Shown here in pieces: positions 2,065 through 22,535 of a DNA stretch of 64,000 nucleotides. Origin of the DNA: a phage; the sequence record PZ386980.1; one strand, 5' to 3'. The translations under genes were made by a program, and so were the position numbers. The notes beneath the pieces are model-generated. The model did not search any database. It was not told the origin of the DNA and was given only the letters and a program-made list of their open reading frames with translations. The first letter of the stretch is position 1; the number at the start of each line of letters is the position of its first letter.

Positions 2065-2074
2065 TATTTATTCC

Positions 2075-2710: not shown

Positions 2711-2739
2711 TTTCTAATCTCCGTAATTCTGTATCAGTA

Positions 2740-2805
2740 GTTGATAGTTGTATAATACCACAGTATGCTTTGGTTGTAAACCGGTTTGTGAAAAAAATTT
2801 TTGAA
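2740..2805 (-). promoter_or_regulatory. early promoter cassette (PeSL-type) upstream of motA
   Basis: minus strand reads GTTTAC - 17 nt - GTGGTATTATAC, flanked by A/T-rich UP-like stretch; same cassette recurs at >10 sites. Confidence 0.5.
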
Positions 2806-2834
2806 ATAAAAAAAGGGAGAGCCGAGGCTCTCCC
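2806..2834 (-). terminator. rho-independent terminator downstream of the small ORF 2840-2989
   Basis: GGGAGAGCC/GGCTCTCCC hairpin followed by a U-run on the minus-strand transcript. Confidence 0.55.
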
Positions 2835-2839
2835 TAAAA

Positions 2840-2989
2840 TTACTGCATGACAGTTATCACAGTCATGATAACACGTTGAATTCCGAACGCAAGAAGACCT
2901 CCTGCTACGGCTGGAACAACACCTAAACCCGTCAGTAAAATGCTACCGGATACTAATGCAGCGCTTGTAATACCTATGAATGGACTCAT
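2840..2989 (-). CDS. small hydrophobic membrane peptide (49 aa)
   Basis: own translation MSPFIGITSAALVSGSILLTGLGVVPAVAGG...; ATGA overlap with gene 52 stop. Confidence 0.4.
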   Translation of the reverse strand: MSPFIGITSAALVSGSILLTGLGVVPAVAGGLLAFGIQRVIMTVITVMQ

Positions 2990-4314
2990 TTGATTTCCTC
3001 TAAATCTTTGGTGTATTCAGTAACTACATCAGTAGTTTTCCAATATTCGTTTTCTTCTTTTTTAGCTTTAGCTTCTTCAGCAAGTTTCTTTGCTTCATCG
3101 GAAGTCATATGAAAAATATTCATTCCAACTAGTTTATCAACATAAGAAGAATACATATCGATTTTCGAAAGTTCTTCGGTCAGTTCTTTACGAGTTTTAC
3201 CTTGAACAACAATTTCACCTGAAATTACTTTCTTAATGAAATGTGCCTTGGCAAAGGCTAAACGAAAAGCTGACTCAGTTTCTTTGATTTTGTTATCAAT
3301 TCGTTTTTGGACATAAGTTTTACGAACTTCAACAAAGTCTTTAATTAAATCGACTACGTTATCGTAAACTTGTAGTTTTCCTTTCTCATTAATAACCGTA
3401 ATATTCTGAGAACGACGCTCAATCAACCCGAAGTCTTTCATAATTTTTGCGTGGCGTTCTTCTTCATTATCGCTCAAAGAATATTCTTTACGGAATTTAA
3501 CTTTGAATCCAAAACCGTGCTCACCGCAAGCATCATCCCATGTAATGAAGCCTTTATCTTCAAGTGGGTCTAAAATTTTACTCACATAAGTTTCACGATC
3601 ATACTTATACGGAATCTCAGTGATATGCATTTGAGTTCGTGAAGTAAACTTATATGTTCCACGAATTTCATATTGCCCATCAATTTCAACGACTTCACCA
3701 CGAAATTCTGGGAATTCTACCTTCGGTTTAGTTACTTTCTTTCCTTGAAGAGCTTGTAATACAGCTTTCTTGACAGAAGAAACACTATGAGGAAGAATGT
3801 AAGTTGCATAACCAGTTGCAATACCGGAAACACCATTAAGAAGAACAGTAGGAATAATAGGCAAATAGAAAGCAGGCGGAATGTGTTCTTTATCTTGATG
3901 TACCGGAGCATATTCAGTATCTTTATATACGTTATAGAAATTTTTACTTACACGAGCAAAAATATAACGACTTGCTGCTGCTTTTTGGACGGTACGAGAA
4001 CCAAAGTTTCCTTGACCATCTAACAGAGGAAAGTTATTATTCCAAGTGTTAGCCATCAAAGCACCTGCGTCTTGTGCAGAGTTTTCGCCATGGTGATATC
4101 CAAGGTCCGCTACACCACCTGCAATAGAAGCGAGTTTGTGAAACTTATCTTTATTTCCTCGTGCCAAATCAAGAGCTCGAGCAATAACAAATCGTTGAAC
4201 TGGCTTAAATCCATCAATCATATTTGGAATAGCACGATTTTCAACCGTGTACATAGCATAAGCCAATGCTTCATTATCAATGATACTTTTTAAATCGCGA
4301 TTATTCAGTTGCAT
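2986..4314 (-). CDS. 52: DNA topoisomerase II medium subunit (GyrA-like)
   Basis: 442 aa; N-terminus MQLNNRDLKSIIDNEALAYAMYTVENRAIPNMIDGFKPVQRF is GyrA-like; length equals T4 gp52. Confidence 0.9.
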   Translation of the reverse strand: MQLNNRDLKSIIDNEALAYAMYTVENRAIPNMIDGFKPVQRFVIARALDLARGNKDKFHKLASIAGGVADLGYHHGENSAQDAGALMANTWNNNFPLLDGQGNFGSRTVQKAAASRYIFARVSKNFYNVYKDTEYAPVHQDKEHIPPAFYLPIIPTVLLNGVSGIATGYATYILPHSVSSVKKAVLQALQGKKVTKPKVEFPEFRGEVVEIDGQYEIRGTYKFTSRTQMHITEIPYKYDRETYVSKILDPLEDKGFITWDDACGEHGFGFKVKFRKEYSLSDNEEERHAKIMKDFGLIERRSQNITVINEKGKLQVYDNVVDLIKDFVEVRKTYVQKRIDNKIKETESAFRLAFAKAHFIKKVISGEIVVQGKTRKELTEELSKIDMYSSYVDKLVGMNIFHMTSDEAKKLAEEAKAKKEENEYWKTTDVVTEYTKDLEEIK

Positions 4315-4318
4315 AAAT

Positions 4319-4459
4319 TTACCATACTAGTGAATGTAGTGCCATAATAACATCAGAAATGAAAAGCACGACTTGAATTAATCCGAACATTATTCCGTAA
4401 TATAACGCTATCAATAAAATAACAAGGGTTAATGAATAGCCCAAGATTTTCTTAATCAT
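4319..4459 (-). CDS. small hydrophobic peptide (46 aa)
   Basis: own translation MIKKILGYSLTLVILLIALYYGIMFGLIQ...; in the position of the T4 ac/stp small genes. Confidence 0.35.
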   Translation of the reverse strand: MIKKILGYSLTLVILLIALYYGIMFGLIQVVLFISDVIMALHSLVW

Positions 4460-4607
4460 TTTTTGAACCGATACAAGCGAATAATGATAAAACTGCTAAT
4501 GTCCCTTGAGCTGTTGACTGCAAAAATACTGAAGTTTCTCCAGTTATTATTGTTCCGGCGAATGAAAAGGACCAACAGAAAAAGGCTATACCATTAACAA
4601 ATTTCAT
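4452..4607 (-). CDS. small hydrophobic peptide (~51 aa)
   Basis: own translation MKFVNGIAFFCWSFSFAGTIITGE...; SD-like GAGG upstream. Confidence 0.3.
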   Translation of the reverse strand: MKFVNGIAFFCWSFSFAGTIITGETSVFLQSTAQGTLAVLSLFACIGSKND

Positions 4608-4694
4608 ATTTTCCTCATTAGCGTCCGAAGACGCCTTTAGTTTTAAAATTATTACGATAGAACTGCATCACATGTTCGTTATGGAAATTACTCA

Positions 4695-5138
4695 TTAATA
4701 TGCCTGCAAAACGAATTTAAAGTTATCAGCCAACATACGGTTCATTTCTTCAAGTGTTTGATACTCAGAATGATGATTACGAGTAAACGCTAAAGCTAAC
4801 TGACCTTTACCAAATCCCGTCGTCAGAGGTTTCATCTTAGAAGCAGGCAGATAAAATACTGTGTATGCCATATTGTTATTTGCAATAGTACGCGCAAGCT
4901 GAGACCGGCGTTGACGAATATGACTTAGAACTGCGCTGAATCCTTGCTTAGAACGCTGATTACCAACATAAAATCGTGCAGACACACATGAACCATCGAA
5001 TTCACTTACTAAAAAGTAAAATCCAGGTTTAGATAAAATGTCTTTATGTGGAGTTCCCAAAAACCACTCACCGCCCTTGATTGTACCAATAACAGTAGCG
5101 CCTGCATTATTCAGATCAGTAACAGTCATATATTTCAT
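4695..5138 (-). CDS. possible Ndd nucleoid-disruption protein (147 aa from MKYMTV)
   Basis: track ORF trimmed to ATG preceded by GAGGAAA; size and position between 52 and denB fit T4 ndd; identity by synteny only. Confidence 0.45.
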
Positions 5139-5198
5139 ATTAATTTCCTCTAAATTATTTTCTACTCCAAGGCCGTATGTATTCATACGGCCATTAAA

Positions 5199-5414
5199 TT
5201 AATCGTCGCAGTCGACGCTCAATTCCCAAAACTCTTCTACAGTATAAGTTTCAGTATCATTTTCAATACAGAAACGTTCATTACTATTATTTTCTAAAGT
5301 AGCATTAACTGTCGGTTTCTCGCTAGTGCTCTTAAGAGGTGAAATACGAATTAACTGATCACCGTTATCTAAACAGAAAATTTCACCAACTTTTACATCT
5401 TTAAAACTTTTCAT
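5199..5414 (-). CDS. hypothetical protein (71 aa)
   Basis: ORF track. Confidence 0.45.
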   Translation of the reverse strand: MKSFKDVKVGEIFCLDNGDQLIRISPLKSTSEKPTVNATLENNSNERFCIENDTETYTVEEFWELSVDCDD

Positions 5415-5529
5415 AATTCACCTCAAGGAGTATAAAATCCAAATGCAGTTGTTGACCATCCCATCCAATATGGAAAATTTGCACCAATGTAAAACATAAG
5501 AATATAAAACCAAATGTTTAGTAAATTCA

Positions 5530-5727
5530 TTATTTTACACCATTCCAAATTGTTTCAACCACAGATTTTAAACCATTTTGATGAATATCAATTCCGACTA
5601 CTGTCATCAAATAGATTCCAACTACAACTGAACCCAAGGCAAAAATCAGCATGAAAATGAATAAAGCCGGAAAAATATTATCGAAAAACCATTCAATAAA
5701 TGTAAAAGCACTGCGTTTACGCTTCAT
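5530..5727 (-). CDS. small membrane protein (65 aa from MKRKRS)
   Basis: ATG at 5725-5727 preceded by GAGGAAAA; hydrophobic core FPALFIFMLIFALGSVVVGIYLMTVVG. Confidence 0.45.
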   Translation of the reverse strand: MKRKRSAFTFIEWFFDNIFPALFIFMLIFALGSVVVGIYLMTVVGIDIHQNGLKSVVETIWNGVK

Positions 5728-5734
5728 ATTTTCC

Positions 5735-5848
5735 TCACATAAATCCAAAGTAAACGTTTAATACATCAATCATTAAAACGATTGGGAATATACTCAAAAC
5801 TATTAGTATTATAACTACATTCCATATAGCTTTAACAATCTTTTTCAT
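5735..5848 (-). CDS. tiny membrane peptide (37 aa)
   Basis: MKKIVKAIWNVVIILIVLSIFPIVLM...; ATG directly after conserved cassette leader ...CAACTACGGAGGAACAGAAA. Confidence 0.35.
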   Translation of the reverse strand: MKKIVKAIWNVVIILIVLSIFPIVLMIDVLNVYFGFM

Positions 5849-5854
5849 TTTCTG

Positions 5855-5910
5855 TTCCTCCGTAGTTGATAGGGTAATAGTACCACGGAAGAACAGTCTT
5901 GTAAACAACT
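5855..5910 (-). promoter_or_regulatory. early promoter cassette (PeSL-type)
   Basis: GTTTAC -35, GGTACTAT -10 region, inverted repeat CTGTTCCTCC/GGAAGAACAG and conserved leader with GGAGG. Confidence 0.5.
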
Positions 5911-6091
5911 TTTTTAAAAATATTCGTAATAAATGTGAATACCAACTACTACCGCTGAAACTTGCACAACCCACCACGCACAAGCAATAAGTACAGAATT
6001 CAAAATTTTCATAATAACCTCATTACAAAAGTAAATGTTAAACAAATTACTGGAATACTAATTAACCAAACAAAACACCACCATAATGAAC

Positions 6092-6355
6092 TCATAGTTC
6101 AATCTCAGCGATTTTCATTTCATTACTATTAATAGCCTCTTTAAGACTATCTGAAAGAATTACATTCCAGTGGTCATTCATATGACCATTAACTAAGCGT
6201 GTAATTTCTTCAGGAGTTGAAAAATAAGGCTGATCAGACTCCCAATGCGATAATCCTAAGCGAGTATAAATCATGCCTTCATCATCACTAGAATATTCAA
6301 CTGACACAAACTCATCAGTTATTTTATGCTTAGCATAATAAAATTTAAATTTCAT
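6092..6355 (-). CDS. hypothetical protein (87 aa from MKFKFYY)
   Basis: track ORF trimmed; the first 33 track codons are read-through of the upstream promoter cassette. Confidence 0.5.
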   Translation of the reverse strand: MKFKFYYAKHKITDEFVSVEYSSDDEGMIYTRLGLSHWESDQPYFSTPEEITRLVNGHMNDHWNVILSDSLKEAINSNEMKIAEIEL

Positions 6356-6364
6356 TTTACTCTC

Positions 6365-6440
6365 CAAATCCGTATCAGTTGATAGTTGTATAGTACCACG
6401 GTCCTTGTGGTATGTAAACTGTTTTGTGAAATTTTTTAAA
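6365..6440 (-). promoter_or_regulatory. early promoter cassette (PeSL-type)
   Basis: minus strand GTTTACATACCACAAGGACCGTGGTACTATACAACTATCAACTGATACGG. Confidence 0.5.
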
Positions 6441-6993
6441 TGGAAAGATACCATCCGTTGTAGTTGCTTTTTCTTACAACCTTACGAAGGTCTTCTCTGT
6501 CACCGATGAACTTCGGAGTGTACTGGATGACACCTGGATGAATTTCTTTAGTGTTGAATATAATTATACAGTCAGCGACTTGATGATTTAGAATGGGCCC
6601 TAGATTTATTCCAGAACCATATGGATACTCTCCGCTGCATCCTGTTGTTACCGAAATCCAACGTGAGTCAGTTTGATGTGTCTTAACTTCTACACGAAGC
6701 CCGCAGTATTTTGGATGCGCCAATACATCCCATGCATATGTGTACGGATCATCGACATCTTCTTGGCCTTTATTGACATATCCGCTTAGCCAATCTGCCA
6801 CAAAAAACTCTGCGTACACAGCAATACGACATCTTTCGATAACTTCTGCCTTATCCTGATTTGGGTTCTGTTTTAAAGAGTATCTTGCAGTATCAGCAAT
6901 TTTGACCTTCATTTCATTGGTTAAATCGCTGTTCGATAGAGTAAATGTCGGAATCTGAAATAGTCTCTGTAACCCAGGATTCGTTTTCTGCAT
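6436..6993 (-). CDS. denB: probable DenB endonuclease IV
   Basis: 185 aa, same length and position (adjacent to rIIB) as T4 denB; sequence itself not recalled. Confidence 0.55.
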   Translation of the reverse strand: MQKTNPGLQRLFQIPTFTLSNSDLTNEMKVKIADTARYSLKQNPNQDKAEVIERCRIAVYAEFFVADWLSGYVNKGQEDVDDPYTYAWDVLAHPKYCGLRVEVKTHQTDSRWISVTTGCSGEYPYGSGINLGPILNHQVADCIIIFNTKEIHPGVIQYTPKFIGDREDLRKVVRKSNYNGWYLSI

Positions 6994-7050
6994 TTAAACT
7001 TTCCTTTATGTCGGAATCACTGATATTCATATAAATCATAATTTCTCTTA

Positions 7051-7075
7051 AAACAAAAGGGCCGAAGCCCCTTAT
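7051..7075 (-). terminator. CUUCGG hairpin with U-run (terminator-like)
   Basis: minus strand GGGGCUUCGGCCC followed by UUUUGUUUU. Confidence 0.45.
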
Positions 7076-7076
7076 T

Positions 7077-7271
7077 TTATTTGAATTGTGCAATTCTTTT
7101 CTCTAAACATTCAGCATAAGATTTCATTGAGATAAACTGCGAAAGTAGCAGTTCTTGCTCAACTGCGCTAACTGTTAGAAACTTTGCGCTTTCTAAAAAT
7201 TTACTCAGTGCATTAATTTTGAGCATTAATTGATCGTATTCTTCTTTTACTCGTGCTTGATAACCTAACAT
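7077..7271 (-). CDS. hypothetical protein (64 aa)
   Basis: ORF track; AAGGA SD upstream. Confidence 0.5.
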   Translation of the reverse strand: MLGYQARVKEEYDQLMLKINALSKFLESAKFLTVSAVEQELLLSQFISMKSYAECLEKRIAQFK

Positions 7272-7299
7272 AATTTTCCTTAGTTAAGGGCCGAAGCCC

Positions 7300-8238
7300 T
7301 TATTTAAATTGTTCAGTAACGTCTTCAACTACTTCGTATTGGCAGGTACGCATTTTAGCATCATTGTAATCAATCGGAATTGATACTACATCACGTGGAT
7401 GTACTTTAACTTTTACAACTCGGCTGGTTGAACCACCGAAGTGACGAATATAAGATTTAGAACACACATGCAGACCACGAGAACAAGTTTGTGTATCATC
7501 GTCATTCACACGAGTACGTGGCATTTTAACTACTTTACCAGGACTGTTATCAAAGGTGTTTGAGTGACAGTCAAAGTAATTGCTGCGAACTACTTTCCAA
7601 GCATAGAAGTAACCATCTTCTGTAATTTCAATATCGTTTGCTACCAAGAAATCAAAAAGTCGAGATACCGCTTTCTGGCTTGGGTTTTCCAGCAGATTTT
7701 CCAAGAACGGAAAATAAAATTCAAAGTTTTCGCCTTTTTCCATCGAATCAAGAATACGATCAACCAAACCAGACCGCAATTCAATATTTTGATAGAATAA
7801 GCTTCCACCTTCAATTCGAACATCGCCGGAAATATATTTTTCAACAGCGCGACGAACATTAATTTTTTGTGCCGCTTCTTCCAGCTTATCCGCTACAAGC
7901 AGATTGAGAATTTCCTGGAAGTTTGAATGAGTATTAGGTGTTGCATTATAAGTTACACCATCGACAGTAATCGAAATGAATTTTTTAGATGCATTCCAAA
8001 TAATGTCAGATTTAGTAACTGGAGCAATAACTGCATCGCTATTAACTTTAACTGTAATATCACCGCTAATAGTAACTTTAGAGCGTTTAGCTTCTTCAGC
8101 ATTTTTCAAAACACGACGGATTGTATCAACCGATACACCTTGCCAATCAGCCAATTCCTGCTGAGTATAATTACCGCTTGAATACAGTTTAACAATTTCA
8201 GCTTGTTCGTTTTTGGTCAGGCATTTAATATTGTACAT
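7300..8238 (-). CDS. rIIB: rIIB rapid-lysis / membrane-associated protein
   Basis: 312 aa, MYNIKCLTKNEQAEIVKLYSSGNYTQQELADWQGVSVDTIRRVL...; length and sequence match T4 rIIB from memory. Confidence 0.9.
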   Translation of the reverse strand: MYNIKCLTKNEQAEIVKLYSSGNYTQQELADWQGVSVDTIRRVLKNAEEAKRSKVTISGDITVKVNSDAVIAPVTKSDIIWNASKKFISITVDGVTYNATPNTHSNFQEILNLLVADKLEEAAQKINVRRAVEKYISGDVRIEGGSLFYQNIELRSGLVDRILDSMEKGENFEFYFPFLENLLENPSQKAVSRLFDFLVANDIEITEDGYFYAWKVVRSNYFDCHSNTFDNSPGKVVKMPRTRVNDDDTQTCSRGLHVCSKSYIRHFGGSTSRVVKVKVHPRDVVSIPIDYNDAKMRTCQYEVVEDVTEQFK

Positions 8239-8249
8239 AATTTTCCTTA

Positions 8250-10427
8250 TTAGGCCGCAAGGGCCTTCATAGTTTTAGCGATTTGGGAAACTTCATCATC
8301 ACTTAAAGAGTTGCGATATCCGATGAAGTCGGAAACAATACGGAATTTCTTGGTAAACTCAGCAACCATTTTATCACTATTTTTTGAAGCATTATTTGAT
8401 AATACATCAAAAAGATTAGTTACTGTCCAGATATCATGACCGATGGTATCTTTTCCACCATTAAAATATACACCGCGCAATGAACTAACTATATTAGCGA
8501 GTCGTGTATATTCTTCAGAAACTTCATCTGTACTGAAGTACTTCATCATAAAATCTAGCTCAGGATACTTGATAATTTTATCAATATATCGTTGAGCTGA
8601 ACTTGAATAACCTACATACTTATCATAATCTACATCATCAAAAGCATCTATATATAAATCACGCAAAGCTTCAAAAATACATTGGCACTGACCGAGTTCT
8701 TTTACCTTTTTCTGTAAAAGCGGACGAATAACATAAAATTCATTAATGCCAATAAGATTAGCCATACGAATCAAAATATTCATAGATGGATGACAAAGAG
8801 ATGTAGTACCATCCATAGAGAAAATATCAGAACGATGCATATACGCTACATAACCAGTAATTTCATCTGCTTCTGACGTAAGTGTAAATAGTTCCTCTTT
8901 TTCCCATCGCCCATCTTTAATTTCAAATTTAAATGCTGTAGCAGCTTTAGGACGAGGAGCTTTACTTTTAACTACCTTTGGAATATAGCTTTTAACTAAA
9001 TTTTCAATTTCTGACAAATAATGAATGTTAACTTCATCACTTTCAAACATTGCCATAATATCAGGTAGTAAATCAATCTGCGATTCTACTTCCGGATTAA
9101 TAAACAGAAGACGCTCATTGTGATGAATATTCAAAGTGTTATTAAATTCACTATCATCTAACGCGTGTGCTAATCCACGGACAATATTAACACGATTTTT
9201 AATATTATCAATAACGATATTAATTTTTGTTGTATTAATACCAAACAGACGATAACTTGATGCAACGGCTGAAGTTTCATGACTTTGCTTAATGCGTTTC
9301 AGTCGAGGGTCAAGATTTACTTCATACACCACGCCTGCATTACATAACTTACTGTCAGGTTCAAACATGCTCTGCATCTTTTTATATGACAGATTTTTAG
9401 TCGTGAATTTGACTGAATTACTAATCATATAATCTCGAGCAGAATACCCCATCTTCATCAATTCACGATATGTGTGACGGGGAGATGTTGATTCTTTAAA
9501 TCGTTTTACATCTTCATTAAATGCTTTCTCACTGAGTTCTTTAACTCGTTCAATAATATTTTTACGAGTACGATCATCCAGCGAAAGAGCCTCGCGAGAT
9601 GGAGCAATATCAAGTGAACCCATTGGAAACTTAATGTAATTCACTTCATTGCGAATGCTTAGCCAGTTACGGTCTCTAATAACACCATCGATAGGATAAA
9701 CAATACCGCCATAGATAGCATATAATCCACCACGATCTGGCCAGTATCTTTCTGGATTTACGCCATAATAATCATCAAAATCCGGAAAATAATCAATTTC
9801 GCGGTCAAGACCATTAATGATAGCCAAATCTTTGAACGGTCGCATGATATAAGAAACTTCATAAGCAAAGTTTCTAAAGTCTTTTTCTTCAACTGGAACT
9901 ACGATTTCAATACCAGTTTTATCATCTGGACCCATTTCTTTTACGAATGTAGGTTTAATCTGTGGGCCATCACCATCCATGTAAGCTACATAACCACGAA
10001 TTTCACCTTTATGATACGAAGTAATACTAAACGTATCAGTATAACTAAACGGAGATTTAGAACCTAAACCAAATCCGCCAATGAAATCGTTAGATTCAGC
10101 TTTAGATGAACTGAAGTATGAATTATACAAACCAGGAGAATTATCATCACCCTGAATATCAAAATCACTCATACCCGGACCAAAATCTCGGCAAACAAAT
10201 CGTGGATCTAAACGTCCAGGAACTTGAATGATAAATTTTTCAGGATTTCCATTGAGAGCATGGGCATCAATCATGTTGGTAATCAATTCACGGACTACTG
10301 CGCGAATTTTGTTTGTATACAAATCAGACGACAGAATTTTAAATACTTTAGGAGATGCTGTGATGCTAAATGCTTTTGATTTAGAACCATTACCAAGAAT
10401 TGTTTCTTTTTCAGTGGTGATAATCAT
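8250..10427 (-). CDS. rIIA: rIIA rapid-lysis protein (GHKL-type ATPase fold)
   Basis: 725 aa, [56 protein letters not shown]...; same length as T4 rIIA. Confidence 0.92.
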
Positions 10428-10437
10428 AATTTCCTCA

Positions 10438-10641
10438 TTAATTCATATTACGCTTAATGACTTCAGCAACTTCTAGTAGTTCATCTTTAGTTGCGGTGTC
10501 GGATTGAATTTTATCTCTAATATCTTTAAAGCGGTTTTTAAATTCTTCGGCTTCTCCCATATCGAAAAAGCGTTGAATGATTCTATATTCTCGATGAACT
10601 GCTTTATCAAAAAGTTCTAAATTTACTCTATATGATTTCAT
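10438..10641 (-). CDS. hypothetical protein upstream of rIIA (rIIA.1 position, 67 aa)
   Basis: ORF track; ATG at 10639-10641. Confidence 0.5.
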
Positions 10642-10654
10642 TTCAATATCCTCA

Positions 10655-10700
10655 TTTGCCCAATTAATTATACCACATCCTTGTGGTAAAGTAAACTACT
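10655..10700 (-). promoter_or_regulatory. early promoter for the rIIA.1-rIIA-rIIB unit
   Basis: minus strand GTTTAC - 17 nt - GTGGTATAATTA; the ~30-bp core recurs at 57689-57720. Confidence 0.5.
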
Positions 10701-12513
10701 GGCTCATCCATTCTTTACGAAGGTCAGCATTATCTCCCATGAGCATTTCAAAAAGCTCTTTCCAGTTCTCAGGAAGTTTAACAACATCATATACTGGATT
10801 TTGAATCATCTCACGATATTCAGATTTTTCCAAAGAGCCAAGTCCCTTAATATAACGGATACTATGTTTAGGTAGAGCATCTTTAGCACTCTCATATTCA
10901 GCGACTGTATAAAACCATTCTTGTTTTTTACCGACCTGAGCGATGATTACAGGAGTTTTGACAAAGCGAATTCGTCCTTGCTCAAACAGTTCTGGCCAAT
11001 TACTAAAAAATCCAAGAAGAGAAGGATAAATGCTTCCTAGACCATCATGGTCAGCATCAGTCATAATAGCAATATTGCGATAATTCAAGTTTTCAGCTTT
11101 TTCACCAAGAACTAGACCAGTGATTGCGCAAATATCAAATAGTTCTTTGTTTTTAAGCATATCGGCATATGACATACCCCAGCTATTAAGAACTTTACCG
11201 CGCAATGGATAACCACCATGAAGTTCTTTATCGCGAACATCAATAAGATATCCGATAGCTGAATCACCCTCAGTCAAGAACAATGTAGTGTCAGCATCTT
11301 TACCGCAAAGATTCGCTTTAATATGTTTATGAACCTTAGCTTTAGAAGCCTTTTTAGCTGCTTTAGTTTCTGCTGCTTTTTCTGCCGCCAATTTACGAGC
11401 CAAAGCAGCTTCAATAATCGGCATTAAAATTGCTTCATTATTTAGAATAGCGCGTGAAATCTTTTTAGCATCAAGCTGAATATGACTACGAATTTCGCCA
11501 AATGGAGAAGTCAAACGCTCTTTAGTTTGAGAATCAAATCGCATGTTTTTCATATCACGAACAAACATAACGATAGTCAAACATTCTTTGACACGTGCTT
11601 TAGTTACATCAATTTTGAATTTACGTTTGATTTGTGGAATAAGGTCTTCACAAATATCATCCATAACGCAGTCAATGTGATGGCCACCATTCTTAGTGTG
11701 AATGTTATTCACGTAAGTTAATTGACGAAATCCATCCGGTGAACGACCAACCGCAATAGAACAATTTTCTTGTTCTTGAACGATAGCATGTTCATCATAC
11801 TGTCGTGCATATTTCTTAAAATTGCCCTGAACCTTTTTACCATTAAAGGTAAATTGAATATCAGGATAAACGACAGCAAGTGTCTGGAGACGATCCAGTG
11901 TAATGTCAAGATAAACCTGGGACAGCTCATTAGTTTCAAATGACATAAAATCAGGAATGAAAGTAACACGAGTTCCTTTCCATTTTCCAGGAATAGTTTC
12001 CCAGGATTTATTTTCCATACCATTTGAACAACGAACTACAATATTATTTTGACCATCGCCAGTTTCACCAACAAACATCACAGAAAAAATGTTTGTCAAA
12101 CTAGAACCAACGCCATTCATACCACCGGTGACGCGTTCTTTATCATCACCGAAGTTACCACCTGCTTTTGGAATAGTCCAGGCAGCAACAGGACCAGGAA
12201 TTTCTTCACCAGTAGGTGTTTTAACCATCGCTTGTGGAATACCACGACCGTTATCTTCAACTGTTACTTGATTGTTTTTGATAGTAACATTAATTTTATT
12301 TGCGAATTTAAACTTAGTACGAATACCTTCATCTACTGAGTTATCGATAATTTCATCAATAAGCTTAACAAGACCAGGTACATACTGAACACTTTCCCAT
12401 TTACCAAACAGAAAGCGCTCATGCATTTCATTAGCAGAAGAGCCAATATACATGCCGCTACGCTTTTTGATATGTTCAATATCGCTCAGAATTTTAATTT
12501 CATTCTTAATCAT
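10696..12513 (-). CDS. 39: DNA topoisomerase II large subunit (GyrB-like), uninterrupted
   Basis: 605 aa from ATG at 12511-12513 (track start is GTG one codon upstream); GyrB-like N-terminus; ...DADHDGLGSIYPSLLGFF... is contiguous. Confidence 0.9.
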   Translation of the reverse strand: MIKNEIKILSDIEHIKKRSGMYIGSSANEMHERFLFGKWESVQYVPGLVKLIDEIIDNSVDEGIRTKFKFANKINVTIKNNQVTVEDNGRGIPQAMVKTPTGEEIPGPVAAWTIPKAGGNFGDDKERVTGGMNGVGSSLTNIFSVMFVGETGDGQNNIVVRCSNGMENKSWETIPGKWKGTRVTFIPDFMSFETNELSQVYLDITLDRLQTLAVVYPDIQFTFNGKKVQGNFKKYARQYDEHAIVQEQENCSIAVGRSPDGFRQLTYVNNIHTKNGGHHIDCVMDDICEDLIPQIKRKFKIDVTKARVKECLTIVMFVRDMKNMRFDSQTKERLTSPFGEIRSHIQLDAKKISRAILNNEAILMPIIEAALARKLAAEKAAETKAAKKASKAKVHKHIKANLCGKDADTTLFLTEGDSAIGYLIDVRDKELHGGYPLRGKVLNSWGMSYADMLKNKELFDICAITGLVLGEKAENLNYRNIAIMTDADHDGLGSIYPSLLGFFSNWPELFEQGRIRFVKTPVIIAQVGKKQEWFYTVAEYESAKDALPKHSIRYIKGLGSLEKSEYREMIQNPVYDVVKLPENWKELFEMLMGDNADLRKEWMSQ

Positions 12514-12534
12514 CACTTATCCTCGTTTGGTTTC

Positions 12535-12566
12535 GGGAATATTATACTCCGGCAATCATAAAGCTA
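12535..12566 (-). promoter_or_regulatory. candidate MotA-dependent middle promoter for gene 39
   Basis: minus strand AGCTTTA - 12 nt - TATAAT immediately after a CUUCGG hairpin. Confidence 0.4.
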
Positions 12567-12582
12567 AAGGCCCGAAGGCCTT

Positions 12583-12852
12583 TTATTTAAAACGAATAGT
12601 TGAATCCTTAAAGAACAGCCCAGAACATACTGTTCCTTCTACTTTCTGCCCAGTAGGTCCAATAGCACGAAATCCAGTATGTTGGAAATCATTTTCAGAG
12701 CAACCGAACCAGTTATATCCAGTGATTTCAATATTCGTAAAACCACTTGATGATAAAATTTTAGTTGCATTATCAGCATCAGTACATCCTACTAAAGATA
12801 CTGCTAATACTAATGCTGCAATAGAACGATTAATATATTTCATAGTTTTCAC
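12583..12852 (-). CDS. predicted lipoprotein (89 aa)
   Basis: signal peptide with lipobox LVGC (MKTMKYINRSIAALVLAVSLVGCTD...). Confidence 0.5.
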   Translation of the reverse strand: MKTMKYINRSIAALVLAVSLVGCTDADNATKILSSSGFTNIEITGYNWFGCSENDFQHTGFRAIGPTGQKVEGTVCSGLFFKDSTIRFK

Positions 12853-13223
12853 TTAAATTTAATGGCTTGAAGGAGACTAATAATTCTCAAACGGCTTCTT
12901 TCATCTTTAACTGTAAAAGAAAGAGGGTCGCCAGATTTCATGGTAATAGTGCATTCAAAATCAAAATCTTCAGTGACTTCTTCGAAGAAGTCAAATTCTT
13001 CATCATAAATTAGAACACTACTTTGCAGACTGTGAAGAGTTTTTCCAGCATTTCTGCTAACTGCTGTACTAATCATTGTAACATTATGACCTTTCATATC
13101 TTCGACGATAAATTCACTAGTCAATATTACAGCATTAATAGAACTATTCCTATTACTAGCAGAAAGTAGAAATTTCTGTTCTTCACCTTCACGAATACGA
13201 TATTTCTTACCAATTTTAAACAT
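12849..13223 (-). CDS. hypothetical protein (124 aa)
   Basis: ORF track; ATGA overlap with upstream gene. Confidence 0.5.
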   Translation of the reverse strand: MFKIGKKYRIREGEEQKFLLSASNRNSSINAVILTSEFIVEDMKGHNVTMISTAVSRNAGKTLHSLQSSVLIYDEEFDFFEEVTEDFDFECTITMKSGDPLSFTVKDERSRLRIISLLQAIKFK

Positions 13224-13225
13224 AA

Positions 13226-13402
13226 TTATCCCTTAAGTAAGTCGTAAAATCCACCATTCACATGCTTAGGAGCAGAAGGCCGACGAGTAGACAAACGATG
13301 ACATTTAGGACAAACATCATTTTCTCGTTCAGAAATCTTTTTAATTTTTTCATATTCATGCCCGCAATCTTTAGATTGGCATTTATAATCATACATCGGC
13401 AT
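13226..13402 (-). CDS. small zinc-ribbon protein (58 aa, two CxxC pairs)
   Basis: own translation MPMYDYKCQSKDCGHEYEKIKKISERENDVCPKCHRLSTRRPSAPKHVNGGFYDLLKG; below track cutoff. Confidence 0.45.
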   Translation of the reverse strand: MPMYDYKCQSKDCGHEYEKIKKISERENDVCPKCHRLSTRRPSAPKHVNGGFYDLLKG

Positions 13403-13404
13403 AA

Positions 13405-13830
13405 TTATTCCTTAAAATGTGCTTTCAACATCTGATACAAGGACCATGCCTGTTCATTATTTTCAATAGTAACTTTCATGACTGGAAATTCTGTGAAATC
13501 TTCTATTTGTTCTTGCTCTTTCTCTTCCTGCTCTTGCTCTTCAGCTGCCTGGTATGGATTTTCCACTTCATCAAAGAACACAGCTTCACTCGTTGAAAGC
13601 CAGATAAAATCTTCATCCAAAATATCTTTACCAGAAGATAACGCCAATTTTCCACTAGATGTCACAAGTTTAGTAGGACGACCAAGATAGTCAATATCTG
13701 TAACTCTAAAAGGTTCCATACCAAGACGTCGTGCATAAATTCCGTTTTCAGTATGGTCCTTGATAAAATCTTCTTGAGCTTGTTTATTTTTAAATTGATA
13801 CCATTTATTAACTTCAAATTTAATAGCCAT
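13405..13830 (-). CDS. hypothetical protein (~142 aa), acidic [11 protein letters not shown] tract
   Basis: ORF track trimmed to second ATG (MAIKFEV) to remove overlap. Confidence 0.5.
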
Positions 13831-14045
13831 TAATAAGTTTCCTTCCAATAAGTTGTACCATCTTCAGTAATTTCGCGAAACACACCATAAATTGGTTGTT
13901 TATCACCAACTTTTTCGTACACATAAACCGAAGTCAAGTGAGTAAACTTATTAGTATGTTCCTTTTGAACTACTACCAGATTTGGATCAAATAATACATC
14001 TTCAAATTCGTCATTAGTGCAATTCTGAACAATTTTACGTTTCAT
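13830..14045 (-). CDS. hypothetical protein (71 aa)
   Basis: ORF track. Confidence 0.45.
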
Positions 14046-14058
14046 TACAATTTCCTCA

Positions 14059-14328
14059 TTAATTGAACAGTGGAGCGATGCGTTTCAGAAGAGTAGCAGC
14101 ACCTTTAGCGAATTTTACATCATGAAAAACAGTTTCTTCTTCCGTTACAACACGAACTTTAATGTTTTCACAATCCCAATTTTTACGAACAATCTTCAAA
14201 AGCTGCAGTAAATCTTTACATTCAGCAATATCGATAACACATCCACGAGAATCTTCCATTATCGCACGATAACCGTAAGCCATACCATAATCGTTGAAAG
14301 ATTGCTCGATGATAATTAAGTTTTCCAT
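14059..14328 (-). CDS. hypothetical protein (89 aa from ATG; track start is TTG)
   Basis: ORF track; ATG at 14326-14328. Confidence 0.5.
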   Translation of the reverse strand: MENLIIIEQSFNDYGMAYGYRAIMEDSRGCVIDIAECKDLLQLLKIVRKNWDCENIKVRVVTEEETVFHDVKFAKGAATLLKRIAPLFN

Positions 14329-14341
14329 TTTATTCTCCAAG

Positions 14342-14400
14342 TTATTTTCTGTATCAGTAGTTGATATTGATATAGTACCATAATCAACTACTGATGTATA
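14342..14400 (-). promoter_or_regulatory. promoter-early-stem-loop element
   Basis: inverted repeat ATCAGTAGTTGAT ... ATCAACTACTGAT enclosing GGTACTATAT. Confidence 0.45.
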
Positions 14401-14435
14401 TAGTTTTATGAAAAAATTTTAAACTTTATGCAAAT

Positions 14436-14855
14436 TTATGCTAAAGCTGCTTCGCACCATTTTTTAATTTGGAATTCAGGAACTACCATGAACTGGCCTG
14501 CAAAAACAATATTGTAGAGCTTGACACCATCTTCTACCCAACGGTCCGAAATAAAACCAGCGACTTGATTCGTTGTCCATGGAGTTCCATCTGTTGCCGC
14601 CGCAATTGTGAATTTATGGTCTTTTACAACTAAAACTGAAGAACAAAGTTTCCATTTAAATGCGCTTTCTTCTGGCTCAATGAACTGACTTGAGACATAG
14701 CCAATGTTACCATCAGCGTCACGAACTTTAACCTCGTTACGACCAAAAACTGGATCACTTACAGAAAGAACTTCAACCAGCTTTCCTGCAACTTTAGAAC
14801 GAGAAGCAACGGATACATATACGTAATCACCAGTAGAGAGATTTACAATATTCAT
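14436..14855 (-). CDS. paralog family member A (139 aa), unknown function
   Basis: shares C-terminal module GFISDRWVEDGVKLYNIVFAGQF and N-terminal SRSKVAGKLVEV with the next ORF. Confidence 0.55.
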   Translation of the reverse strand: MNIVNLSTGDYVYVSVASRSKVAGKLVEVLSVSDPVFGRNEVKVRDADGNIGYVSSQFIEPEESAFKWKLCSSVLVVKDHKFTIAAATDGTPWTTNQVAGFISDRWVEDGVKLYNIVFAGQFMVVPEFQIKKWCEAALA

Positions 14856-14864
14856 AATAATTCC

Positions 14865-15338
14865 TTAAGCTTTACGAGGAGAAGCATAACGAGTGATTTC
14901 AGATTCTTCAACAACCCGGAAGTCACCTAAGAATACGATATTGTAGAGCTTTTCACCATCTTCAACCCATTGGTCTGTGATGAAGCCACACATCCTATCA
15001 GTTTTACTTGGACCAGCGAAATCATCAATATAATCGAATTCTTCATCAGTTACAAATTCAACGCCTTTACACAACGCCCATTTAAATTGTGCATTAGACT
15101 CAGTGGATTCAACTTCTTCAACAGAAGTAAAATGAGAGCTAACACGAGTTTCCAGAAATTTAGGACTTACGTAAGCGTACTGAGTTTCAGTTTTTCCAGA
15201 ACTAGGAATGATTCGAACTTTAACTTCTTTAACACGACCAGTACCATTAGTACGAAGTCCTACCACTTCAACTAGACGACCTGCAGCTTTAGAACGAGAT
15301 GCAGACGATACACGCTTAATTTCACCGATAGTAATCAT
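14865..15338 (-). CDS. paralog family member B (157 aa), unknown function
   Basis: C-terminal GFITDQWVEDGEKLYNIVFLGDF; N-terminal SRSKAAGRLVEV. Confidence 0.55.
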   Translation of the reverse strand: MITIGEIKRVSSASRSKAAGRLVEVVGLRTNGTGRVKEVKVRIIPSSGKTETQYAYVSPKFLETRVSSHFTSVEEVESTESNAQFKWALCKGVEFVTDEEFDYIDDFAGPSKTDRMCGFITDQWVEDGEKLYNIVFLGDFRVVEESEITRYASPRKA

Positions 15339-15410
15339 AATTTTTCTCTCTTTGTTGTTAAGATTTATTCTCCATGAGAGCCATTATAACAGGCTCTCTA
15401 TAAAGTAAAC

Positions 15411-15920
15411 TTAATTAAGGATATTAATTACTGCACTGCGTGGAACTACACTAAAATCACCTGCATGAACAACGTTCAGAAGTTCAACACCATCTTCAAG
15501 CCACTGGTCAGTTACCCAACCACTTACTGGACCAGCAAATGGTCGACGAATTGAAACAGCTTTACACAACAAGTCAGTAGGCTCGATAGGCTTAACCAGA
15601 GTACCGTACATACAAGCAATGTCCATATCAAAGTGGAGACCAGTGCTAACAGGTGCTTCTTCAATCAACAATTCGAAATCTTGTTCTGTAATATAGACCG
15701 TAGATATTGTACCATATAAGTTTTTAATTCTTAAGAATGATACAGATGAAGCTGTGGCAGTTGATGCAAAAATAGGACCAGCATTTACAATAGTGAAACC
15801 TTTACCTTGGGTAACACCAATAAGCTCGCAAAACTTACTATAAGAACCATTATTTGCTTCAAACCAGTTTACTTGCTTTTCGTCTTTCAGGATGTAAGTA
15901 GCTGTAGTACTGATATTCAT
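15411..15920 (-). CDS. paralog family member C (169 aa), unknown function
   Basis: C-terminal GWVTDQWLEDGVELLNVVHAGDF; N-terminus unrelated to A/B. Confidence 0.55.
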   Translation of the reverse strand: MNISTTATYILKDEKQVNWFEANNGSYSKFCELIGVTQGKGFTIVNAGPIFASTATASSVSFLRIKNLYGTISTVYITEQDFELLIEEAPVSTGLHFDMDIACMYGTLVKPIEPTDLLCKAVSIRRPFAGPVSGWVTDQWLEDGVELLNVVHAGDFSVVPRSAVINILN

Positions 15921-15932
15921 GATGTTTTCCCC

Positions 15933-16436
15933 TTAATCTAAGGTAATAAAGCCTTTTAATTCGGCATGTGACTTGCGGAACATTACTTGATGACCGCCAA
16001 TGATAACTTGGTCATCAGGTACTTCGTATACAGCGAGATAAAATCCTTTAGAAGCTAATTCTTCGCGCTCTTCTCGTGTGAACCATCTCATCATATCATA
16101 TTCGCTAGCGAAAGCAAAATGATAAAGAGCTATAAACCATCCTGGAATATAGTGATCTACGCCTACATATTCTTCTTTCTCAAAATTAGTATTAATTGCT
16201 ATATTAGCATTTTTAACTAATAATTTGTCTTCATGCGGCACAGGAATTCTTTTATTATCATTACTATGATGCATAAAATTGGGTCTGTCATAACCTACGC
16301 GTAATAACCACTCTTCGCTCCATGAATCTATTATACTCCTGTATGGCGTTATTTGAACACAAAGATCTCGACGTATTGTTATAGCATCTTCATAATTAAG
16401 AATACTAAATGATGATTCAACACGATAAATTTTCAT
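15933..16436 (-). CDS. hypothetical protein (167 aa from MKIYRV)
   Basis: track start is TTG; ATG at 16434-16436 preceded by GAGGA. Confidence 0.5.
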   Translation of the reverse strand: MKIYRVESSFSILNYEDAITIRRDLCVQITPYRSIIDSWSEEWLLRVGYDRPNFMHHSNDNKRIPVPHEDKLLVKNANIAINTNFEKEEYVGVDHYIPGWFIALYHFAFASEYDMMRWFTREEREELASKGFYLAVYEVPDDQVIIGGHQVMFRKSHAELKGFITLD

Positions 16437-16454
16437 TTTATTATCCTCAGTAGC

Positions 16455-16495
16455 TATGGTGTTATAATACCACAACTAACCGAGGAAGTAAATAA
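16455..16495 (-). promoter_or_regulatory. candidate early promoter
   Basis: minus strand ATTTAC ... GTGGTATTATAAC. Confidence 0.4.
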
Positions 16496-16499
16496 CTTT

Positions 16500-17183
16500 T
16501 TATCGTTTTGTTGGAAGAGATAGAGGATCGCATTCTTCCTCTGATGGAGCGTCTTCAAGACCCATAGCATAGCGCAAAGCATACTTCATCATCAGGATGT
16601 CTTTCGCACAGTCATGAATAGAATCATGCGCAACGAATCCATCTAAAGTTCCTTTTGGAAGAGGACACGTGGTCATATCACGAACAAGGAGAAGTGCTTC
16701 AATTCTGGTACGAATATCACGCTGATTCCAGAATTTACATGGTTCTAACTTAAATGTGTCAAGCTCATTCTCGGAAACGCCGTTAAGACGTTGAATATCG
16801 CGAATGAGATCGACTAAAATTGGAAAATCAAACGACATTCCACGGCACCAGCCTTGAGATTTCCAAGGATCGATATTATGCGCATTGATGTAATCATTAA
16901 ATTTTGCAATACCATCGATAGTGCTTACATCTTCATCTGATGGCGCAATATTTTTTCGAGCTTCAGGAGATTGATTCTTCCACCATTCGATAGTGCTTTT
17001 AGTAAAAAGACGATGTCCTTTTTGGCTTTTTAAATCAAATTTGATTTTAATGCCACGTGAAACTAATTCATCAAATGTTTCAACGACTTCTGGATTAGGG
17101 TCAAAAGCAATTACAGCCAAATCAATAACAGCTGCTTTTTCACCGCTTCCCATTGTTTCAAAATCTATAATAAAATCAAACAT
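16500..17183 (-). CDS. dexA: DexA 3'-5' exonuclease A
   Basis: 227 aa, MFDFIIDFETMGSGEKAAVIDLAVIAF...; matches T4 DexA from memory. Confidence 0.9.
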   Translation of the reverse strand: MFDFIIDFETMGSGEKAAVIDLAVIAFDPNPEVVETFDELVSRGIKIKFDLKSQKGHRLFTKSTIEWWKNQSPEARKNIAPSDEDVSTIDGIAKFNDYINAHNIDPWKSQGWCRGMSFDFPILVDLIRDIQRLNGVSENELDTFKLEPCKFWNQRDIRTRIEALLLVRDMTTCPLPKGTLDGFVAHDSIHDCAKDILMMKYALRYAMGLEDAPSEEECDPLSLPTKR

Positions 17184-17440
17184 TAAATTTTCCTTGCTAA
17201 ATCGCGAATTTGACCTACAGTATAATCTTGGATATAAACTTTATTAATAGGCTCATCAATAAATTTTGCCATAGATTCAATATCTTTTTGTATCTCTTCA
17301 AGACTGTATACTATCTTTAAAGCTTTTTCGCGAATAGTAACATTATCAGGTCCTGGATTTTCTTGAATGACAGCTTTAACATTTGTCATAAGAGATTTAA
17401 ACTGGTACCAACTTAATTCAATCATTAATAATCGCCTCAT
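17183..17440 (-). CDS. small protein, tandem paralog 1 (85 aa)
   Basis: ORF track; shares LEEIxxDL ... DYxxGxI pattern with the next two ORFs. Confidence 0.45.
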   Translation of the reverse strand: MRRLLMIELSWYQFKSLMTNVKAVIQENPGPDNVTIREKALKIVYSLEEIQKDIESMAKFIDEPINKVYIQDYTVGQIRDLARKI

Positions 17441-17678
17441 AAAGATAGCTAATTTCGCCTAAAACGTAATCATTGATTGTAACAGTTTTCACTTCACCAC
17501 AAAAGAATTCTAACGCAATTAAATCTCGTTCAATTTCTTCTAATTGAAGCATCAACTTACTAGATTCAATTTTTACAGTTTCACGATTTTTACCATGAGC
17601 AATTTCATAAATTTCGCTCACTTTATCTTGAAGCAGATAAAACTGGTCTTTAGTTATTTCCACGAATAGCTTCCTCAA
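17418..17678 (-). CDS. small protein, tandem paralog 2 (86 aa)
   Basis: ORF track; same pattern. Confidence 0.45.
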   Translation of the reverse strand: MRKLFVEITKDQFYLLQDKVSEIYEIAHGKNRETVKIESSKLMLQLEEIERDLIALEFFCGEVKTVTINDYVLGEISYLYEAIIND

Positions 17679-17910
17679 ATTTAATTAGTAATTTACAGAC
17701 ACTTTCATCTAGTGTAATTACCGTATCTGTATTACTGTGATATGATTGTTTTTCAATTCGTTTAATTGCTAATATAGTATCACTTATAAGATAAAGCTTA
17801 TGAAGGAGCTCAGCTCCTGTTACCATAACATCGAGATTATCTTGCTTATTAGTATGCTTCCTTATACCATCTATTAGACGATTTAAATATTTTGAATTGA
17901 TGTTAATCAT
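17650..17910 (-). CDS. small protein, tandem paralog 3 (86 aa)
   Basis: ORF track; weaker similarity. Confidence 0.4.
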   Translation of the reverse strand: MININSKYLNRLIDGIRKHTNKQDNLDVMVTGAELLHKLYLISDTILAIKRIEKQSYHSNTDTVITLDESVCKLLIKFEEAIRGNN

Positions 17911-17916
17911 ATAGCC

Positions 17917-19236
17917 TCACACATAAAACACATCATAACGACCACGTGTTACACCAACATAAAGAAGCTGCTGAGCTAGTTCAGCATCTGCATAATGAAT
18001 ACAAGGCGTATAAATGAAAGCACGGTCTACAGACATACCCTGAGCTTTATGGAATGTTGATGCAGGAAGTGCTTTCACTTTACTAAACTGTGATTTAGCA
18101 TCCCAAAAATCACTCCACGGAGCCTTTCCGCCTTTATTCCAATTTTTATAAGTTTCTGCTGTTTTACCTAAAAACAGGTTAAACTTATATAGCTCTTCAT
18201 CAGATGAAATTATTTTAATCTTTTCACGATAATATTCATCATCGCCGTAAGTTTCTACTGTTAAATCCCAATGACGAATTAAGTATTCTCCAGGAACACC
18301 ACGAGCTTTAACAAACGTCGATGTATACTCTGCTTCTATAATACGAACTAATTGTCCATTATTAAAAATAATTTCTGATACAGGCTTTCCATCAATTTTA
18401 TATGTTTTAATTAACGGTTCTTGCATTACAATAATTTCACCGACAATAAAGTCTTTATCAGTTTCAAAAATCTTTTTACGAATAATGCTATTTAACTTGT
18501 CAACAGATTTATTCGTAAATGCCATTACGCGATTTTCAAACAAATCATCTAGTGATTTGACGATTGAAAAATAATTTACCATAAAATCGCGTAAAGCGGT
18601 ATCACCAGTAAATCCACGTACTCCATGCCCATCAACAACTTTATCATAAATCCATTTACCGTTGCGAACATCAGTAGCTACATCAATAATAGGAGCATTA
18701 CTGCGTTTAACTTCAGTAAGTTCACACTGATAAAAATCTTTGTGTGTAAAGAATGGACTGATATAAGCAGTATTTTCTCCTGGGTCAACAGGTCTAATTT
18801 GCTTATTATCGCCTATTCCAATTATAGTACACCACGGTGGGATAGTTGAAAGCAAAATTTTGAAGAGCTTTCTATCATACATTGACACTTCGTCGCAGAT
18901 TAATACCCTGCATTTAGCTAAATCTGGTACTTCTTTTTGTTCAAAAAGAACGTTTTCTTCATATGTTACTGGGTTAATTTTAAGAATACTGTGAATAGTA
19001 CTCGCTTCTTTCCCCGACAGTTTTGAAAGAATCTTTTTAGCTGCATGTGTAGGAGCTGCCAAAATGATACCAGTTTCACCCGTAGATATTAAAGCTTCAA
19101 TGATGAACTTAGTAAGAGTAGTCTTACCAGTACCAGCAGGTCCATTAATAGTTACATGATGTTTCTTTTCTTTAATAGCCCTCATAGCGATGTTAAAGGC
19201 GTTTTTCTGGCCTTCTGTCAAATCATCAAATGTCAT
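17917..19236 (-). CDS. dda: Dda DNA helicase (SF1)
   Basis: 439 aa, MTFDDLTEGQKNAFNIAMRAIKEKKHHVTINGPAGTGKTT (Walker A); matches T4 Dda. Confidence 0.92.
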   Translation of the reverse strand: MTFDDLTEGQKNAFNIAMRAIKEKKHHVTINGPAGTGKTTLTKFIIEALISTGETGIILAAPTHAAKKILSKLSGKEASTIHSILKINPVTYEENVLFEQKEVPDLAKCRVLICDEVSMYDRKLFKILLSTIPPWCTIIGIGDNKQIRPVDPGENTAYISPFFTHKDFYQCELTEVKRSNAPIIDVATDVRNGKWIYDKVVDGHGVRGFTGDTALRDFMVNYFSIVKSLDDLFENRVMAFTNKSVDKLNSIIRKKIFETDKDFIVGEIIVMQEPLIKTYKIDGKPVSEIIFNNGQLVRIIEAEYTSTFVKARGVPGEYLIRHWDLTVETYGDDEYYREKIKIISSDEELYKFNLFLGKTAETYKNWNKGGKAPWSDFWDAKSQFSKVKALPASTFHKAQGMSVDRAFIYTPCIHYADAELAQQLLYVGVTRGRYDVFYV

Positions 19237-19544
19237 CGGAAAGTCCCTGCAATTGGAATACTAACAATACGCCCAGTATCTAGAATTCGTTGATATAATC
19301 TTTGTGTATCTACATCAGGCTTAACATGTTTAACTTCTATTTTATTAAACCAAAACTTGCGTGGAGTCTCAACTAGTCTTGGAATTCCCATACCTAAAGC
19401 TAGTTTATATTGGTCTTTGAGAGTAGTAAAAACTCTATCAGCAATCTCTCTTTCAAAAAACACAGCAGGACGATGTTCATCAAGTGGAACTGGCGCCGTA
19501 AATCCGTCTTTGTCTCGGTAAACTATCGCATATACATAAACCAT
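19233..19544 (-). CDS. hypothetical protein (103 aa; dda.1 position)
   Basis: ORF track; ATGA overlap with dda. Confidence 0.5.
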   Translation of the reverse strand: MVYVYAIVYRDKDGFTAPVPLDEHRPAVFFEREIADRVFTTLKDQYKLALGMGIPRLVETPRKFWFNKIEVKHVKPDVDTQRLYQRILDTGRIVSIPIAGTFR

Positions 19545-19545
19545 A

Positions 19546-20292
19546 TTATCCTCGGATAAGTTTAAAAATTGAACAATTTAGCGGGTATCCTCTTTTCAGT
19601 TTAAGTTTATCAATAAAAGACAAGTTTTGATACCGCTCTACACCTTGAATAATTTTATCACACATATCATATTGCATTTCTGCTTCTGACAACTTTTTCA
19701 CAATTTTCCAATCCGAGCCTTTAAGAAGAACGTTCAGTTTAACAACTTCAGCGCCTTCTGCTATGCGAGAACCATCAATACGAGCTTTAAGTGCTATAAT
19801 CCTTAGCTTAATGTCAGAGGTCTGTTTTGATTTAGAAAGCTGAGAAATGTGTTCAATTCGATTTTCACGCTTTTTCTGTATAGCTTTAATTTGATTATAA
19901 GTCTTTTTGATTTTAGCCCATTTCTTTTCATCTAAATTTAGTTTATGAACTTTTTTCGCAGATGAACGACCAATTCGCAAAGCAAATAAATCCCGTTTTT
20001 CAATCAACTCTTCTAAAGTATAATCAGAACGAAATGTATTATACTTTTTCTTTACTGCAATAACATTCCCTTTAATGTATCCAATGTTATTATCAAAACG
20101 TTCTAATGATAATTTCTCTCCTTCAATACGATTATCAAAAGGTTCTCCTGAATAGGCACAAACTTTTTGATCTAAAATGTTCTTAATGTAATTGAAGTCT
20201 AAGTTAAAATCTTTAGAACGTCTTTTTGCAGATGCCTGAGTGTGCTCTAAACGACGTTTAATTTTACGAATTTGATTATTAGACAGTTTCAT
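19546..20292 (-). CDS. Srd-like protein (248 aa), by position and size
   Basis: lies between dda.1 and modA as srd does in T4; basic K/R-rich; sequence identity not verified. Confidence 0.4.
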   Translation of the reverse strand: MKLSNNQIRKIKRRLEHTQASAKRRSKDFNLDFNYIKNILDQKVCAYSGEPFDNRIEGEKLSLERFDNNIGYIKGNVIAVKKKYNTFRSDYTLEELIEKRDLFALRIGRSSAKKVHKLNLDEKKWAKIKKTYNQIKAIQKKRENRIEHISQLSKSKQTSDIKLRIIALKARIDGSRIAEGAEVVKLNVLLKGSDWKIVKKLSEAEMQYDMCDKIIQGVERYQNLSFIDKLKLKRGYPLNCSIFKLIRG

Positions 20293-20414
20293 ATTTTTCT
20301 CACATCTTACGGACGATTGACTACTATACTATAACATTTTTACCTTAGCTTGTAAACAACTTTATGTAAAAATGCTTTAAAAATTTCATGGTATAATGAA
20401 TCTAAGTCCTTCCA

Positions 20415-21637: not shown

Positions 21638-21704
21638 GATAGCCTCCGTATACTTCAGAAGCTATCATATCATCGTTAGAAAGGAAAGTAAACAACTTTT
21701 TGAA

Positions 21705-21887: not shown

Positions 21888-21895
21888 ATTAATTC

Positions 21896-22378: not shown

Positions 22379-22535
22379 GTGATTTCCTTTTGCCTACTAA
22401 TGGACCGTCAGGAATTTTATTTTCCTGGATATACTTCTCATTTTCTTCCATCATTTTACTGCCAATTTTAAGAAGCAAATCCAAGGCTTCATTTGCTTTA
22501 GCCTTTGCCTCTTCTAACGTCATATCTTTGGTCAT
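22371..22535 (-). CDS. small hypothetical protein (~54 aa)
   Basis: own translation [31 protein letters not shown]...; ATGA overlaps both neighbours. Confidence 0.3.

Follow-up and report, generated by a model that had tools for sequence, protein, structure and literature searches.

The undivided topoisomerase gene 39 of phage RB51 at the place where T4 carries the MobA cassette

The DNA topoisomerases of T2 and T6 have two subunits, and that of T4 has three (PMC11461880). The T6 gp39 protein corresponds to T4 gp39 plus gp60, according to Huang, Wei and Casjens (1985, J Biol Chem 260:8973) as cited in PMC11461880. In the T4 annotation, gene 39 (516 aa) is followed by a mobA pseudogene, by gene 60.1 and by a gene 60 whose two annotated pieces are separated by a 50-nt 'translational bypass region'. 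The insert is a mobile element, the MobA cassette, which is able to home into T2, as the work of Bonocora et al. (2011, PNAS 108:16351) is summarised in bioRxiv 2022.08.31.505936, and reviews agree on both the undivided gene 39 of T2 and T6 and the MobA insert (PMC2988022; PMC5009743).

The 'parental' genomes and the map of the MobA element have been described (bioRxiv 2022.08.31.505936). The element is about 1.1 kb long, 55-75 nt of the gene are deleted upon its insertion, and the insert encodes a diverged copy of the deleted part that is 67-81% identical to it. The insert of the T4 clade carries 9 further diverged nucleotides past the gap, and the cassette is reported from six phage clades (same source). 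The position of the MobA nick is taken here second-hand from that preprint.

The genome and its gene 39

The DNA under study is a stretch of 64,000 nucleotides, referred to below as the window. It matches phage RB51 (FJ839693.1) at 64000/64000 bases (record positions 160146..168394 followed by 1..55751), the RB51 sequence having been reassembled from fetched pieces for this comparison. Over window positions 10300-13000, RB51, RB68 and Ac3 all show 100% identity in megablast. The genome is that of RB51, or of its near-identical siblings RB68 and Ac3. The window crosses the conventional start of the RB51 record at 8249/8250, at the rIIB/rIIA junction (the end of the rIIB region, then rIIA), so database matches to its first 25 kb are split between two locations in any record that begins at rIIA. 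The features that make up the topoisomerase genes are the following:

10696..12513, minus strand: gene 39 ('60plus39' in RB51), large subunit of the type II DNA topoisomerase, undivided (ORF list, identity to RB51, Pfam, match to 8ylu_C)
12521..12583, minus strand: putative signals upstream of gene 39, read directly from the sequence
12106..12255, minus strand: GHKL ATPase motifs DNGRGIP (residues 87-93) and GGMNGVG (residues 130-136), from the motif positions and Pfam HATPase_c
11257..11271, minus strand: EGDSA, motif of the TOPRIM catalytic glutamate (residues 415-419), computed from the translation
11041..11058, minus strand: DADHDG, TOPRIM acidic motif (residues 486-491), from the codon listing
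2986..4314, minus strand: gene 52, GyrA-like partner subunit of the same topoisomerase (RB51 annotation 163131..164459; Pfam DNA_topoisoIV, E 9e-77)

The original prediction described gene 39 as one ORF of 605 codons at 10696-12513. The ORF list contains exactly this frame, a single one of 605 codons plus TAA; the coordinates were right, and the strand, which the prediction did not give, is minus. Given that 6.7% of the triplets in the window are stop triplets, a run of 605 open codons has a chance of about 5e-19. The gene is identical at 1818/1818 nucleotides to RB51 '60plus39' (FJ839693.1 2447..4264, RB51ORF003, ACP30921.1), with no difference, and the RB51 record annotates it as 'gp60plus39 DNA topoisomerase subunit'. 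A GTG at 12516, one codon 5' of the ATG at 12513, also opens the frame. It was rejected as the true start, because the ATG is the annotated start in T4, T2, T6 and RB51, and the spacing of the GAGG found 7 nt before it fits the ATG.

Upstream of gene 39, all on the minus strand, lie the hairpin AAAGGCCTTCGGGCCTTT (12583-12566), GCTTTA (12564-12559), TATAAT (12546-12541) and the Shine-Dalgarno sequence GAGG (12524-12521). The GGCC-TTCG-GGCC hairpin is followed by T residues and then by the GCTTTA, 12 nt before the TATAAT. These elements probably represent a terminator, a MotA-type middle promoter and a ribosome-binding site; a consensus sigma-70 scan did not list the putative middle promoter. 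The neighborhood on this side contains a 124-aa ORF, RB32ORF005c (window 12849-13223, minus strand), which lies between 39.1 and 39.2 and is present in RB51 and T6, whereas the T4 annotation passes directly from 39.1 to 39.2 with no annotated counterpart. The annotated length of gene 39.1 is 261 nt in RB51, T2 and T6, as against 198 nt in T4.

The product contains a GHKL ATP-binding domain (Pfam HATPase_c, residues 47-149, E 1.9e-9, above the cut-off) and a transducer, the second domain of GyrB (Pfam DNA_gyraseB, residues 250-384, E 1.5e-13), in which QTK occupies residues 329-331. The EGDSA motif and the acidic DxDxD cluster (DADHDG) of TOPRIM are found in one continuous chain, followed by Pfam TOPRIM_C at residues 519-604; the Pfam Toprim model itself is absent from the matches of this product at E <= 0.001. 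The chain matches that of the solved T6 gp39 structure (8ylu_C, and related entries) over its full length, and it matches the structure of an engineered T4 gp39-gp60 fusion in two stretches. With its GHKL ATPase, transducer and TOPRIM, the product is the GyrB-like large subunit of a T-even type IIA topoisomerase. The GyrA-like breakage-reunion partner, gene 52, is present in the same genome. ATP-dependent DNA relaxation has been shown for the T6 enzyme (PMC11461880) and, by analogy with that report, is to be expected of the RB51 product, which differs from T6 by 2 residues in this subunit.

The junction in RB51, T4, T2 and T6

Residues 1-473 of the product align with residues 1-473 of T4 gp39 without gaps, 465/473 being identical (98%). 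Residues 472-605 align with residues 27-160 of T4 gp60, again without gaps (128/134 identical, 96%, local alignment), the true homology to gp60 beginning at residue 477 (gp60 residue 32). No gap or insertion is found at the junction in these BLASTP alignments. At the DNA level, gene 39 is 96.0% identical to T4 over the shared part. Homology extends from window position 12600 to 11096 at 96.4%, and then from 11031 to 10600 at 98.4%. Between 11096 and 11031 only 46 nt align to T4, at 76%, and these correspond to the part of gene 60 that lies just before the gap. The two break points bracket the site of the T4 cassette, and their positions agree closely with the published map of the insert (bioRxiv 2022.08.31.505936). 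They delimit one more feature:

11032..11094, minus strand: codons 474-494, the 63-nt 'parental' segment replaced in T4 by the MobA cassette of about 1.1 kb (putative empty homing site; T4 homology break points)

The hop site of T4 reads GAT GGA TAG, 50 nt, TTA GGT TCT. The window reads GAT GGT CTA GGA AGC. The position of the T4 gap falls here on the boundary 11041|11040, after the final Gly codon of DADHDG, and nothing is inserted there: codon 491 is GGT (window 11041-11043), and CTA GGA AGC comes directly next, in frame and with no stop. The peptide that the original prediction had quoted for this place, DADHDGLGSIYPSLLGFF, corresponds to residues 486-503, and the prediction that the sequence runs on uninterrupted through the bypass point is borne out.

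The alignment to T4 shows one further difference. In codons 326-328 (window 11530-11538), the T4 reference (NC_000866) reads MRLIRQTK, as against MRFDSQTK in the window, T6 and T4T. The change from FDS to LIR, which adjoins the conserved QTK loop, results from a compensating -1/+1 indel pair, and T4T lacks it. Either an old sequencing error or a variant of the laboratory strain may account for the indel pair.

In T2 (AP018813) and T6 (MH550421), gene 39 occupies 2447..4264 (1818 nt, 605 aa), at the same place as in RB51, between rIIA.1 and 39.1. The window gene aligns to both without gaps and at the same length. At the DNA level it is 96.5% identical to the T2 gene and 96.3% identical to the T6 gene, and the products differ by three and two residues, respectively. 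RB51 has R479 where both T2 and T6 have H479; it further has F70 and T173 where T2 has L70 and D173, and Q526 where T6 has H526. Over codons 477-491, the 45 nt before the hop point, there are 2 nucleotide differences from T2, all in codon 479 (CGC vs CAT). This codon is CGC (Arg) here and CAT/CAC (His) in T2/T6, and the MobA nick is reported to fall in the segment to which it belongs. The identity of the RB51 site with the tested T2 target of MobA is thus incomplete.

Absence of the cassette and its distribution

No part of the T4 cassette was found at the locus. The 43 C-terminal residues of T4 gp39 and the 30 N-terminal residues of gp60 have no significant match anywhere in the window, and the gene is a single ORF, not a split pair with cassette-encoded C- and N-terminal extensions. 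A pattern search of the whole window found no match to the T4 bypass hairpin within 3 mismatches, and Rfam at gathering thresholds reports nothing in the window. Neither a take-off GGA followed by UAG nor a 50-nt gap with hairpin and landing GGA is present around codon 491. The nascent-peptide signal KYKLQNNVRRSIKSSS is also missing 5' of the take-off site, where the window reads ...GEKAENLNYRNIAIMTDADHDG. There is no mobA between the gene halves, in agreement with the original prediction: by tblastn, intact T4T MobA matches the window only at 40210-40557 and 43166-43393, far from gene 39.

Matches to the gene 39 region come from 582 phage records; identity is 90% or more in 501 of these, and coverage of the region is 80% or more in 494. 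The cassette (T4 2794-3910) occurs in 43 of the 582 records that hold the region, among them T4 isolates, RB55, RB59, HY01, vB_EcoM_112 and several Salmonella and Shigella phages. Among close relatives the gene is intact in about nine of every ten, so that the undivided form is the rule and the split form the exception. The split and the 50-nt hop are indeed absent from this locus, but calling them T4-specific was too narrow, the cassette being present in 43 phage records.

Since the undivided gene is the norm among relatives, an intact gene 39 is no specific sign of T2 or T6. Its DNA identity was likewise rejected as a proof, on its own, of T2/T6 over T4 (96.3-96.5% vs 96.0%). The genome is not T4, as predicted, and a second gene supports the T2/T6-like affiliation:

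31045-31887, minus strand: T2/T6-type beta-glucosyl-HMC-alpha-glucosyltransferase (98.9% identity to the T6 ggt product)

The gene is flanked by uvsX and gene 42, a place that segA and beta-gt occupy in T4. It is an independent marker that supports a T2/T6-like, not a T4, genome.

Other homing endonuclease genes or remnants noticed in the window are the following:

40210-40923, plus strand: mobB-like HNH homing endonuclease, between genes 45.2 and 46 (phrog_655, E 2e-68; 38% identity to the MobA N-terminus)
42624-43477, minus strand: Mob-family HNH homing endonuclease, broken, between genes 46 and 46.1 (phrog_655, E 4e-36; 40% identity to the MobA N-terminus)
61088-61807, minus strand: seg-like putative homing endonuclease RB32ORF093c, between nrdC.9 and nrdC.10 (RB51 annotation)

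The mobB-like gene is among the very few plus-strand genes of the window. The broken gene is split into overlapping ORFs of 208 aa and 106 aa. It aligns over 881 nt here with 882 nt in Aplg8, CM8 and PhiZZ23, where it is annotated as one homing endonuclease, and this copy therefore appears to carry a 1-nt frameshift. Pfam assigns no family to either half of the frameshifted gene (42.6-43.5 kb), and PHROGs matched. The element is found in only 71 phage records, and in the RB51 record it is unannotated, the ORF numbers 059/060 being skipped.

RB51 beside T2, T6 and T4

By combining these results, it is possible to describe the expression of the locus and its relation to the cassette. It can be stated with great confidence that 10696-12513 is the undivided gene 39 of RB51, translated colinearly, that its product would pair with gp52, and that the site of the MobA cassette is empty; no result of the analysis speaks against this. 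The sequence identity, the colinearity, the absence of every part of the cassette, the domain content and the partner gene are all directly observed. The gene is translated as one chain of 605 residues with no recoding; there being no take-off GGA, no UAG stop, no 50-nt gap and no nascent-peptide signal, ribosomal bypass is neither needed nor possible. Together with gp52, this chain would form an enzyme of the two-subunit type, like those of T2 and T6, and the literature suggests its assembly into a heterotetramer. The locus itself is an empty site for the MobA cassette, with the parental 63-nt segment in place and, going by what has been published on MobA, probably susceptible to nicking and homing.

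An intact gene could also be a secondary restoration, if the lineage had once carried the cassette with its bypass and had lost it by recombination with an uninvaded relative. T-even phages recombine freely, homing elements come and go (bioRxiv 2022.08.31.505936), and a loss of this kind would bring back the parental sequence without trace. However, the 63-nt segment is of the parental type, as in T2 and T6, and is distinct from the diverged copy carried by the cassette (76% identical), neither the gp39 tail nor the gp60 leader nor mobA has left a remnant in the window, and the undivided state is that of the large majority of relatives. As the state is the common one and no remnant is left, a lineage that was never invaded is the simpler explanation, and an earlier loss is very unlikely. 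That the continuity of the gene is an artefact of assembly or annotation, or that some cryptic recoding is still needed, is more improbable still, to the point of being negligible. Nothing was found in its favor, and it would have to accommodate the separate records of RB51, RB68 and Ac3, which are identical in sequence, the 494 records that cover at least 80% of the region, a frame whose 605 open codons would hardly arise by chance, and a product whose match to the solved T6 gp39 chain is full-length.

Within the preferred reading, in which the cassette never entered this lineage, R479 deserves a comment. Its codon, CGC, would be a natural variant of the MobA target that could alter recognition by MobA and so help to explain why the lineage is uninvaded. 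Judged from the sequence of the site, this is a long shot, if a somewhat better one than the loss of a former cassette.

The observation from which this analysis started is correct and was rightly interpreted, and it is already known from the RB51 annotation and from the literature on gene 39 of T2 and T6 and on MobA. The empty site in the window helps to place the genome and adds nothing beyond these sources. The comparison with T4 can be drawn as follows. In place of a 63-nt segment of the RB51 gene, T4 has an insert of about 1.1 kb, which adds a tail of 43 residues to gp39, the mobA (pseudo)gene and a leader of 30 residues that includes the nascent-peptide signal, as well as a diverged copy, 15 codons long, of the segment it replaced, the UAG stop and the 50-nt gap, all of them absent in RB51. 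Outside the cassette, the T4 protein is the same protein as the RB51 product. The undivided gene is thus the reference 'before' state for the 50-nt hop of T4 gene 60, which ranks among the best-known cases of recoding, and for the cassette that created the hop.
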